64,000 nt of DNA from an uncultured Actinomycetes bacterium (GTDB lineage Bacteria; Actinomycetota; Thermoleophilia; UBA2241), in assembly GCA_963725665.1 (NCBI GenBank), contig CAVRZA010000011.1:128001-192000 (forward strand), given 5' to 3'. How positions within the stretch are numbered: the stretch's first letter is position 1; every line of letters starts with the position of its first letter. Of the stretch, positions 49,221 through 51,223 are shown one piece after another. Made by a program: the position numbers and the translations under genes. The notes under the pieces were generated by a model. That model had not been told where the DNA came from. It was given only the letters and a program-made list of their open reading frames with translations, and did no database searches.

Positions 49221-49345
49221 GGAGCAACTGTTGGTCCTTGACGGGACCCCCAGAGACGAAGGGCGCTCACCCCGTGGGCCCAACGTGGTGAGCGCCCTCT
49301 TCTTGTCCTCCAATCTCTCCCACAGGACCCAGAGGAGGAATCTCT

Positions 49346-50770
49346 ATGACGATGTCAAGCCGCCGCGGCGGACCTGAACATCGTCTCGTCGCGAAGCATC
49401 GCCCAGATGACGTTCACCCGCCGCCGGGCAAGCGCGATCACGGCTTGGTGATGGCGCTTGCCCTCGGCCCGCTTGCGGTCGTAGAAGGCGCGCGAGGGCG
49501 GGCTGCGCAGACTGGCGAAGGCGGATTGGTAGAAGACCCGCTTAAGGACCTTGTTGCCCCCCTGCATACGGCGCACGTTGCCGCTTCGTTTGCCCGAGTC
49601 GCGGGCCACCGGGATGAGGCCGGCGTAGGCGGCCAGGTGGTCGGCGGAGGCGAAGCTGCTCAGCTCGCCCACCGCCACCAGGAACTCAGCGCCCAGGCGG
49701 GGGCCCATGCCCGGCAGGCTCACCAGGATCTCCGCCTGGGGGTGGGAGAAAAAACGCCGCTCGAGCTCCTGGTCGAGCCGCGCCAGGCGCTCCTTTGTGG
49801 CCAGCACCTCGCTCGCCAGGTCGGCGACGATCGCGGCGCTCACCTCCTCGGCGGGCAGAGAAACGCTCTGGGCGCCCGCCGCCTTAAGGGCGCTCTCGGC
49901 CAGCTTGGCCGCTCCCCGGCAGCCGCGGGCGCGCAGGTAGGCCTCCAGGCGGCGGGCGCCGGCGCGGCGTACCTCGACCGGCGTGCGGTAGCGCTGCACG
50001 AGGAGCAGGGCGCCCTTGGTGGTGAGGTCCAGGGCGCGCTCCAGGCCGGGGAAGACGCCCACCAGCGCCGCGCGCAGGCGGGTGACGGCCCGTGTCTGGT
50101 CTTGAACCAGGTCGCGCCGCCGCGAGGTCAGCAGGGCCAGCTCGGCCAGCACCGCCTCGCTGGGGCGCAGCTCGGAAAGGTCACGGCGCGTGCGTGCCTG
50201 TTCGGCGATGATGCGCGCATCGCGGGCGTCGGTCTTGGCCTCTCCCCGGTAGGCGTCGCGGGAGCGGTTCACGGCCACGCCCGGCAGGTAGAGCACGCGC
50301 TCCTCGCCGCTCCACAGCACGGCCAGGGCGAGGGCGGCGACGCCGCCGGGGATGTCGAGAGCCCAGGTCGTCTGGCCGGCCTGAGCTCTGGCCTCGGCGA
50401 TCAGCCGCCGCAGCTCGTCCTCGTCGTTCTCCACCCGGCGAGAGAAGACGAGGCGTCCCTCCTCATCGATCGCCGCCGCCCAGTGGAAGTCCTTGCCCGC
50501 GTCGATGCCCACCCACAGCCCAGCCATGGCCACCTCCTCGCTTCCGCCGACCCCTTGCCCGTGGAGCACCCCGCCGGCACCTCCCTACACAGCGATCGCT
50601 CGCCGATCTCTATCAGCGGTCAGGGCGTCCAAAGGGGCCGAGGGGCCATTCCTCCCGAGCCATGCGAGCGGCAGAGACATGACAGCCATCCTCGACCCTT
50701 CTGGGCGTCCCGGACGCTACCGCAAAGAGGGCTCACAGCAAAGAATCCGTACGCCACAGGAGAAAGGTAG
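49346..50770 (+). CDS. Antisense ORF spanning the IS (hed-like)
   Basis: 474-aa ORF from ATG 7 nt after host GGAGG to TAG at the last bases of the element; coding status uncertain. Confidence 0.4.
   Translation: MTMSSRRGGPEHRLVAKHRPDDVHPPPGKRDHGLVMALALGPLAVVEGARGRAAQTGEGGLVEDPLKDLVAPLHTAHVAASFARVAGHRDEAGVGGQVVGGGEAAQLAHRHQELSAQAGAHARQAHQDLRLGVGEKTPLELLVEPRQALLCGQHLARQVGDDRGAHLLGGQRNALGARRLKGALGQLGRSPAAAGAQVGLQAAGAGAAYLDRRAVALHEEQGALGGEVQGALQAGEDAHQRRAQAGDGPCLVLNQVAPPRGQQGQLGQHRLAGAQLGKVTARACLFGDDARIAGVGLGLSPVGVAGAVHGHARQVEHALLAAPQHGQGEGGDAAGDVESPGRLAGLSSGLGDQPPQLVLVVLHPAREDEASLLIDRRRPVEVLARVDAHPQPSHGHLLASADPLPVEHPAGTSLHSDRSPISISGQGVQRGRGAIPPEPCERQRHDSHPRPFWASRTLPQRGLTAKNPYATGER
49355..50527 (-). 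CDS. IS110 family transposase (bridge recombinase)
   Basis: WVGIDAGK, ALDIP, KTDARDA RuvC-like domain; SLPGMG, LAAYAGL, DSG Tnp domain; SD GAGGAGG; 390 aa. Confidence 0.95.
   Translation of the reverse strand: MAGLWVGIDAGKDFHWAAAIDEEGRLVFSRRVENDEDELRRLIAEARAQAGQTTWALDIPGGVAALALAVLWSGEERVLYLPGVAVNRSRDAYRGEAKTDARDARIIAEQARTRRDLSELRPSEAVLAELALLTSRRRDLVQDQTRAVTRLRAALVGVFPGLERALDLTTKGALLLVQRYRTPVEVRRAGARRLEAYLRARGCRGAAKLAESALKAAGAQSVSLPAEEVSAAIVADLASEVLATKERLARLDQELERRFFSHPQAEILVSLPGMGPRLGAEFLVAVGELSSFASADHLAAYAGLIPVARDSGKRSGNVRRMQGGNKVLKRVFYQSAFASLRSPPSRAFYDRKRAEGKRHHQAVIALARRRVNVIWAMLRDETMFRSAAAA
50565..50757 (-). ncRNA. IS110 bridge RNA with target- and donor-binding loops
   Basis: Guide segments at 50674-50682, 50648-50655, 50606-50613 and 50581-50588 match the junction sequences; flanking stems and a GCGA tetraloop on the minus strand; RNA ends approximate. 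Confidence 0.85.
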
Positions 50771-50776
50771 GGAGAC

Positions 50777-51223
50777 ATGAACAGTGAGCAACCGCCAGAG
50801 GGACCGCAATGGCGCATTCTGGGCGCCGAGAGAGGCGCTGACTTGGCCGAACACCTGGCCCACGAGCAGGAGGCGGTGCTCATGCTCGGCGACGACGTCT
50901 TCGTGTTTCACCGGCTAGGCGTCGGCACTACGCCGGAGCTTCCCTGGAAAGACGAGACCGAGGAACTCACGCTGCACAGAATGGGGTCTTTTGCCCCACT
51001 GGAGGAGCACGAGCGCGCATACATAGCGCAGCAGAACAGCGAGGCAGAGTACAAGCAGGCAGCCGAGAAGGCGCTTTCCTTCCAACTGATGGGGGGGCAA
51101 CAGGTCATCCGGCTGTACCGACACACACACGCGCACGCGTTCGCCGAGGAGATCCACAAAGAGGGTCTTCGACTGACCATTGTCGGCCTGCTCGATGACG
51201 TGCGAGCGGCGTCAATAGCCTAG
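50777..51223 (+). CDS. Hypothetical protein (IS110 target gene)
   Basis: 148-aa ORF of lower GC; its original SD lies on the other side of the IS. Confidence 0.75.
   Translation: MNSEQPPEGPQWRILGAERGADLAEHLAHEQEAVLMLGDDVFVFHRLGVGTTPELPWKDETEELTLHRMGSFAPLEEHERAYIAQQNSEAEYKQAAEKALSFQLMGGQQVIRLYRHTHAHAFAEEIHKEGLRLTIVGLLDDVRAASIA

Follow-up and report, generated by a model that had tools for sequence, protein, structure and literature searches.

A Putative IS621-Type Bridge RNA in the Left End of an IS110-Group Element from an Uncultured Actinomycetes Bacterium

Organization of the Element and Its Ends

The window analyzed here is a stretch of 64,000 nucleotides from the contig CAVRZA010000011.1 (positions 128,001 to 192,000; assembly GCA_963725665.1) of an uncultured Actinomycetes bacterium. 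It contains an IS110-group insertion element of 1434 bp located on the minus strand at 50773-49340, counted from the core of the left junction to the last base of the left donor. Its left end, which precedes the recombinase gene, very probably encodes a bridge RNA of the IS621 type. The element is organized as in the IS110 group, with a long non-coding left end (244 nt, 50771-50528), a short right end (15 nt, 49354-49340, counted from the base following the stop codon through the end of the left donor), no long terminal inverted repeats and a short core at both junctions. Positions are those of the window, and the element is read on the minus strand. Related loci are designated by L numbers, and the second copy of the element in the same genome is designated C4 (L002). 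The locus has the following features.

49355-50527, minus strand: gene for the 390 aa recombinase; start codon ATG at 50527 with GAGGAGG before it at 50539-50533; residues D9, D58, D100, D103 and S311
50772-50773, minus strand: core dinucleotide TC of the left junction; TCC at both junctions here, only TC in L019
50767-50771, minus strand: right donor (RD) CCTAC, first bases of the left end; complementary to the right donor guide (RDG) GUAGG in the window, C4, L009 and L019
49340-49347, minus strand: left donor (LD) ATAGAGAT, with which the element ends
49338-49339, minus strand: core TC of the right junction
50774-50780, minus strand: left target (LT) TCATGTC, in the flank; equal to the left target guide (LTG) at 50682-50676; includes the reverse complement of the host ATG at 50777
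49332-49337, minus strand: right target (RT) CTCCTC; GAGGAG on the plus strand is the Shine-Dalgarno motif of the host
50777-51223, plus strand: host gene, 148 aa; start codon 5 nt from the left junction

The copy C4, found on another contig of the same genome, is 100% identical to the element over window positions 50781-49332. Outside this interval the flanks of the two copies diverge, so that the left end is placed at TC(C)-CCTACC and the right end at ATAGAGAT-TC(C). TCC is repeated at both junctions in the window. Since the two junctions of the related element L019 have only TC in common, the core, as read from these junctions, is TC and not TCC; the original prediction had given it as TC(C), and its third base is not retained. 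The flanks of C4 are TCACGCC-TC and CTCCTC, so that the right target CTCCTC is common to both genomic copies, and the site is similar to that in the window without being identical. Other copies at unrelated sites had been named beforehand as a result that would speak against a bridge RNA; the second copy was found instead at a similar site with two T to C differences. The two identical copies argue for recent movement of the element, which was probably active not long ago.

In four metagenomic DNA runs examined, unitigs end at 49332 and 50774. The contigs simply stop at these two positions, and neither a joint nor a circle junction nor an empty site was found in the runs. A search of 60 relatives did not reveal the element (0/60 at E <= 1e-40).

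Recombinase

Analysis of the recombinase using Pfam revealed a DEDD_Tnp_IS110 domain (PF01548, 1.5e-46, residues 6-160) followed by a Transposase_20 domain (PF02371, 4e-20, residues 266-349). In a profile search, the best PDB matches were the transposases of IS621 and ISCro4 (1.4e-26 and 1.1e-26, respectively). A phmmer comparison with the PDB sequence of IS621 aligned the Tnp domain only (6e-12), and a profile was needed for alignment of the RuvC domain. Residues D9, D100, D103, S311 and G312 are invariant in 14/14 relatives.

In the profile of 14 relatives, D58 (within ALDIP) is aligned with E60 of IS621. All positions of the tetrad are acidic, literally DDDD, and the change is a conservative one. 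The original prediction had noted D at the usual E of DEDD as something added by this instance. The alignment is right (D58/E60), but the residue is not specific to this copy: D occupies the E60 position in 13 of the 14 relatives and in 73 of 75 aligned cluster representatives, the other two having E and G. These representatives come from the best 150 of 20,284 clusters, 87 of which were at least 300 aa long, with 75 of the 87 having a residue in this column. Because of the frameshift in its gene, L019 was not included in the protein alignments. By this alignment, D in place of E60 is a clade-wide trait with nothing special to the window copy, and an all-aspartate tetrad would serve the whole clade.

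Guide Segments in the Left End

Five segments of the left end were assigned as putative guides.

50674-50682, minus strand: LTG, UCAUGUC + UC; same sense as LT and the core; would pair with the bottom strand
50650-50655, minus strand: right target guide (RTG), GGAGGA; complementary to the core TC and RT CTCC; a Shine-Dalgarno sequence
50648-50649, minus strand: handshake guide of the target loop, AU; complementary to AT, the last two bases of the left donor
50606-50613, minus strand: left donor guide (LDG), AUAGAGAU; same sequence as LD; followed by CG, which mismatches the core
50581-50588, minus strand: RDG; GUAGG would pair with RD, then GA with the core, then a handshake G with C50774 of LT

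They form four matches of 8-9 nt in the minus-strand reading. The LTG UCAUGUCUC (50682-50674) is identical to the flank TCATGTCTC (50780-50772), and GGAGGAAU (50655-50648) is the reverse complement of ATTCCTCC (49341-49334). The LDG AUAGAGAU (50613-50606) is identical to the element end at 49347-49340, and GUAGGGAG (50588-50581) is the reverse complement of CTCCCTAC (50774-50767). The donor guides of the window agree with the ends at 8/8 positions for LD and at 7/7 positions for RD and the core; beyond the handshake G of the donor loop, G50580 could form a wobble pair with T50775. All four matches had been proposed in the original prediction and were found where it had placed them.

The 239 nt left end was subjected to 5000 dinucleotide shuffles to see how often such matches arise. 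An equal or longer match was obtained in 24, 110, 414 and 396 shuffles for the four guides taken singly, and all four matches together were obtained in none of the 5000. A single guide match is weak; the set of four and the covariation described below carry the case.

Covariation of Guides with Flanks and Ends

The comparison included 4 loci from genome contigs and 26 from metagenomes; 14 left-end regions were aligned, and 17 left and 14 right junctions were tabulated. L013 is absent from the left-junction table (its left end is diverged or truncated), L017 was not used as it has no target loop, and the partial or distant loci L006, L020, L021, L023-L025, L027 and L029-L034 were left out of the guide tables.

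It was found that the guides vary together with the flanks and ends across 13 related elements. The longest exact run between LTG and LT had a median of 7 for cognate pairs (n = 17 junctions) and of 3 for non-cognate pairs (n = 258, of which six reached at least 6). For RTG and RT the medians were 5.5 (n = 14 junctions) and 2 (n = 207 pairs), respectively. Covariation of guides with flanks across homologous copies had been suggested in advance as a check of the bridge RNA, and these medians agree with what was expected of it. At the level of single elements, L009, whose protein is 81% identical, has the LTG UCAUUGCUC and the flank TCATTGCTC, while its right guide and right flank are unchanged. 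L019 (71%) has the RTG GAAGA and the flank TCTTC. L005, found on a Streptomyces contig, has concerted changes in its donor guides, in the two ends of the element and in the handshake dinucleotide.

The donor side follows the same pattern. RD and RDG change in concert in L005 (CGTAA with UUACG) and in clade C (CTTAC with GUAAG). Between clades, LD is ATAGAGAT, ATCGGGAT or ATTACTCA and RD is CCTAC, CGTAA or CTTAC, with guides matching in each case; two further clades, with the ends ATCGGGAT...CCTAC and ATTACTCA...CTTAC, have a GC core and donor guides that correspond to these ends. Both positions of the handshake dinucleotide of the target loop pair in all 14 right junctions, where it occurs in three states (AT, AC and CA). 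The extension of the right guides past the core, taken in the original prediction for handshake pairing, is borne out by these junctions and fits the description in PMC11208158.

The C4 site differs from the LTG at two positions, both T to C, and a U.G wobble is allowed at each. Mismatches in C4 and L028 are mostly of this kind, RNA U opposite bottom-strand G; this applies to 2/2 mismatches in C4 and to several in L005 and L028.

Some further observations were made on individual loci. At the left junction of L022 (about 1240-1275) the guide set is as in L014, and the flank ATTGCTC-GC perfectly matches the donor guide (AUUGCUCG) and not the target guide; this may reflect an insertion or rearrangement at a donor-like site. 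In the clades with a GC core (L010, L011, L003, L004, L014, L016 and L018) the LTG matches the core incompletely (e.g., CC or GG against GC) and the right guides always match it, and left and right guides may read the core differently. Decayed copies were also present: the recombinase of L019 (1501-2695) is frameshifted, L026 is 88 bp shorter than its sister copies, and L017 has a donor loop without a target loop.

RNA Structure and Putative Promoter

The left end has the layout of an IS621-type bridge RNA, with a target loop located 5' of a donor loop and conserved closing stems. The structural and promoter features are listed below.

50629-50704, minus strand: target-binding module; basal stem 50704-50684 with 50647-50629 around the target loop; 19 pairs, 85% paired, 10 changed on both sides
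50659-50672, minus strand: small hairpin capping the target loop (GCC / GGC); 71% paired; longer in L019, L003 and L012
50571-50619, minus strand: donor-binding module, made up of a closing stem (50619-50614 with 50576-50571) and an inner hairpin (50605-50590)
49353-49358, minus strand: TTGACA, right-end hexamer resembling a -35 box; shares bases with the TGA that ends the recombinase gene
50764-50769, minus strand: TACCTT, -10-like hexamer (TANNNT); 17 nt after the right-end TTGACA once circular

The closing helix of the donor module (CCGCUG/CGGCGG) is 87% paired and almost invariant, with one U.G pair. The inner hairpin CGGCGA-GCGA-UCGCUG (50605-50590) contains one G.U pair and a GCGA loop, and its GC/GC is invariant in 14/14 sequences. 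Both stems had been drawn correctly in the original prediction. The stem of about 22 bp proposed there (50711-50690 with 50622-50643) contains 3 mismatches and 3 G.U pairs in the window; its inner part, 50704-50684 with 50647-50629, is conserved, and its outer 7 pairs do not stand, being 36-40% paired across relatives.

RNAalifold analysis of 14 sequences gave 26 pairs, 13 of them with compensatory changes. A hand-drawn structure, consisting of the previously proposed stems and two small hairpins, paired in 73.5% of cells, compared with 35-48% when the partner was slid. Its covariation score was 0.221 against 0.064-0.090 for the slid versions, and none of 500 shuffles reached 0.221. The fold of the single sequence was dropped as a line of evidence, a z-score of -1.55 being uninformative at this GC content.

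The right end contains CTTGAC at an equal distance from the end in all 14 right ends. Joining of the ends would form a putative circle-junction promoter, TTGACA-17 nt-TACCTT. A scan of the integrated state revealed no sigma-70-like sites.

Target Sites and Host Genes

The programmed target is TCATGTC-TC-CTCC, which on the other strand reads GGAG-GA-GACATGA, that is, a Shine-Dalgarno motif, a spacer and a start codon. The RTG GGAGGA is a Shine-Dalgarno look-alike, and the LTG reads the spacer and TCAT (ATGA on the other strand). Since the guides spell a Shine-Dalgarno sequence, a spacer and the complement of ATGA, the element would be expected to land in front of a gene of the opposite strand, after its ribosome-binding site and before its start codon. 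Within clade A, to which the window element belongs, all five insertions (5/5) are oriented and located 5-13 nt from a start codon, between it and a Shine-Dalgarno motif.

Window insertion: ATG at 5 nt; 148 aa gene with a paralogue
C4 insertion: GTG at 5 nt; full-length Hist_deacetyl, 4.4e-92
L009 insertion: ATG at 5 nt; Ribosomal_S17, 1.1e-31 (L009:63-344, minus strand)
L005 insertion: ATG at 8 nt; Inhibitor_I36
L019 insertion: ATG at 13 nt; 142-codon open reading frame (ORF), no Pfam family

In the clade with ATTACTCA ends, 4/7 insertions lie at a start codon followed by at least 71 open codons, and in clade B none of five do. The window element targets a translation-start region, whereas the natural targets of IS621 are repetitive extragenic palindromic (REP) sequences. 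No other exact copy of the 13 nt target was found in the genome; at up to 2 mismatches there are 96 sites, compared with 21 for a reversed control. Two sites are occupied in the genome, and the C4 copy lies at a 2-mismatch site. As for the L009 insertion before ribosomal protein S17, continued expression of the downstream gene would be expected to be needed.

Proposed Mechanism and Alternative Explanations

What was observed in the element and its relatives comprises the guide matches and how they covary, a conserved structure, a recombinase of known family with its catalytic residues, two identical copies and the contexts of the targets; from analogy with known systems we infer transcription, the RNA ends, RNA-protein binding and catalysis. 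By analogy with IS621, the element would excise as a circle, and the joined ends would set TTGACA and TACCTT 17 nt apart and give rise to an RNA of ~190 nt, which would fold so as to leave two internal loops. The 5' loop would bind the target, its left half and core being paired on the bottom strand with UCAUGUC-UC, and its core and right half on the top strand with GGAGGA. In the 3' loop, AUAGAGAU and GUAGG-GA would likewise pair with the element's own joined ends. A recombinase tetramer (D9, D58, D100 and D103 with S311) would then cut the top strands after the TC core and exchange them, whereupon the handshake bases AU and G(G) would pair with the partner DNA and the junction would be resolved.

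The original prediction had read the left end as a bridge RNA of the IS621 type, and this reading is strengthened by the second copy, the covariation of guides and flanks, the compensatory changes in the stems and the PDB matches to IS621 and ISCro4. A number of results weigh against it. The cognate junctions of C4, L028 and L022 match poorly, with a longest exact LT run of 3, and the LDG fails to pair with the core, where CG stands against TC. Conservation of the basal stem is lost in its outer third (the 7 outer pairs being those paired in 36-40% of cases), and the alignment behind the structure counts was made with MAFFT, which is not structure-aware. No Rfam family was matched; the three matches obtained (MIR950, DUF3800-IV and a snoRNA) were all far below the gathering scores. 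The minimum-free-energy fold of the window RNA taken alone is undistinctive (z = -1.55) and partly pairs the loops with each other, and the -10-like TACCTT agrees with TATAAT at 3/6 positions only. There was no RNA run among the 15 sequencing runs containing the stretch, no empty site was recovered, and the element and the host gene were found in 0/60 and 0/40 of the relatives searched, respectively.

The weak z-score of the fold and the missing Rfam match would suit the view that the matches are coincidental in GC-rich DNA and that the region upstream of the recombinase gene is a plain 5' untranslated leader. However, all four matches were obtained in 0/5000 shuffles, cognate and non-cognate pairs are clearly separated, and the covariation score of the structure was reached by 0/500 shuffles, which makes coincidence extremely improbable. 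It could also be assumed that the internal copies are subterminal repeats recognized by the protein, or remnants of earlier insertions, and that the protein rather than an RNA chooses the target; no RNA was observed, and each match singly is just modestly unlikely (24 to 414 of 5000 shuffles). Yet for two of the four segments the matching DNA lies beyond the element, and these two shift with the flank (L009, L019 and L005), the segments sit in loops of a stem structure with compensatory changes, and the strand logic is as in IS621, with left guides in the same sense, right guides complementary and a 2 nt handshake after them. Protein-recognized repeats or remnants are, in our opinion, very unlikely.

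A different question is whether the guides alone account for the site class. The bridge RNA may be real and yet owe its bias toward start regions to a further layer (for instance local DNA structure, transcription or ribosome-free DNA) or to selection after insertion. The near-sites fit this assumption, as only two sites are occupied and 96 are present at up to 2 mismatches (21 in the reversed control), and the second copy lies at a 2-mismatch site; a sequence-plus-structure 'dual-match' rule is reported for another IS110 element in a preprint abstract (10.64898/2026.03.19.712850). On the other hand, the guides alone spell the Shine-Dalgarno sequence and the ATGA complement, and the site class needs no extra factor. 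Such a layer is considered rather improbable. The reading retained here is an IS110-group element with an IS621-type bridge RNA in its left end. That this class is RNA-guided is already known; the element joins a known kind and adds an informative target class.

Comparison with Known Systems

In IS621, the catalytic residues are D11, E60, D102, D105 and S241, and the top strand is cut after the core (Hiraizumi 2024, PMC11208158). The right guides of IS621 stay on positions 10-14 and then pair with the incoming core, and in the handshake two bases beside the RTG and RDG pair with positions 6-7 of the non-cognate DNA (PMC11208158). In IS110 elements, a promoter is rebuilt across the joined ends (Durrant 2024, PMC11208160), and bridge RNAs were predicted earlier for 85.7% of the ISfinder IS110 elements (PMC11208160).

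The window element resembles IS621, ISCro4 and IS622 in several respects. Its recombinase has two domains, RuvC-like and Tnp, the latter with the catalytic Ser-Gly; the left end contains the RNA, whose target loop comes 5' and whose donor loop comes 3'; and LT is 7 nt, the core 2 nt and RT 4-5 nt. As in the published accounts of these elements, the left guides have the sense of the top strand, the right guides are complementary and the handshake guides are 2 nt long, and the right-end -35 meets the left-end -10 in the circle only, which for the window element is a reading of the sequence. The order of segments reported for IS621 is matched here: GGAG corresponds to the right target, GA to the core and AU to the final two donor bases, and the donor loop has GUAGG, GA and G in turn. 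The differences from IS621 of Escherichia coli include low sequence similarity, a TC core instead of CT, D58 in place of E60, an LDG that leaves the core uncovered, and a recombinase of 390 aa compared with the 326 residues described for IS621 (PMC11208158) and the 328 aa of the PDB chain.

The elements of the IS1111 group with seekRNA (e.g., ISEc11 and ISKpn60) belong to the same DEDD recombinase family and also show RNA-guided target choice (PMC11187229). In that group, the RNA is in the right end, downstream of the gene, and there are long subterminal inverted repeats (PMC11208160), whereas the RNA is in the left end here.

In this element, a bridge RNA system occurring naturally in a high-GC soil bacterium can be read cleanly, with both the target and the donor halves known and a near-cognate second site. 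The system could be a candidate orthologue for programmable recombination in GC-rich hosts.

Antisense Open Reading Frame and Insertion Before Start Codons

The insertion between a Shine-Dalgarno motif and a start codon found in clade A has a counterpart in IS900 and IS901 of Mycobacterium avium, members of the IS110 family for which oriented insertion between these two elements is described in Plague 2010 (PMC2942039). Titles in the reference list of that paper, Doran 1997 and Inglis 2003, concern the same habit. In IS900, the antisense ORF 'hed' spans the element (PMC8141618). An ORF of this kind is present in the window as well.

49346-50770, plus strand: antisense ORF of 474 aa that extends through the entire element, in the phase of the recombinase codons; status uncertain

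The ATG of this ORF is located 6 nt after the host Shine-Dalgarno sequence GAGGAGGA, and it stops at a TAG within RD in the left end, leaving 6 nt to the host ATG. At this stop, ahead of the host start codon, an SD-like (Shine-Dalgarno-like) GGGAG is restored by the end of the element itself. L009, L005 and four members of another clade also have an open antisense frame of this kind, and clade B lacks it. In-phase antisense frames are commonly open at 71% GC, and the neighboring dehydrogenase gene has an antisense ORF of 624 aa. The antisense ORF was rejected as strong evidence, the non-coding part being open by chance in 16-32% of shuffles per frame.

The likeness to IS900 and IS901 consists of the start-codon insertions of clade A together with the antisense ORF of the whole element, and is drawn from published descriptions of the two elements. 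In the library searched, no paper joining IS900 and bridge RNA was found, although supplementary tables with predictions for many ISfinder elements may already cover such elements; nor did a search there on IS110, bridge RNA and Shine-Dalgarno give anything bearing on start-site targeting. The present data join bridge RNA guides to an insertion habit described for IS900 and IS901 decades ago.

A speculative extension, which is on the unlikely side, is that the bridge RNA of the clade is tuned to translation-initiation regions, with ribosomes crossing the element via the antisense ORF and restarting on the host gene. If this were the case, insertion would set the host ribosome-binding site 6 nt before the ATG of the antisense ORF, and insertions would be tolerable even before essential genes, e.g., that of ribosomal protein S17 in L009. 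It would also give an RNA-guided mechanistic explanation for the 1997 observation of 'hed' in IS900.

The host gene and its paralogue elsewhere in the genome (G000:C1:59943-60380, L036) have no Pfam family, and the host gene was found in none of 40 relatives searched; the two proteins are 48% identical over residues 2-146. Just outside the right junction, at 49259-49300, the intergenic DNA contains a strong GC-rich inverted repeat (GGGCGCTCACC...GGTGAGCGCCC), which was the source of the chance Rfam match to MIR950.

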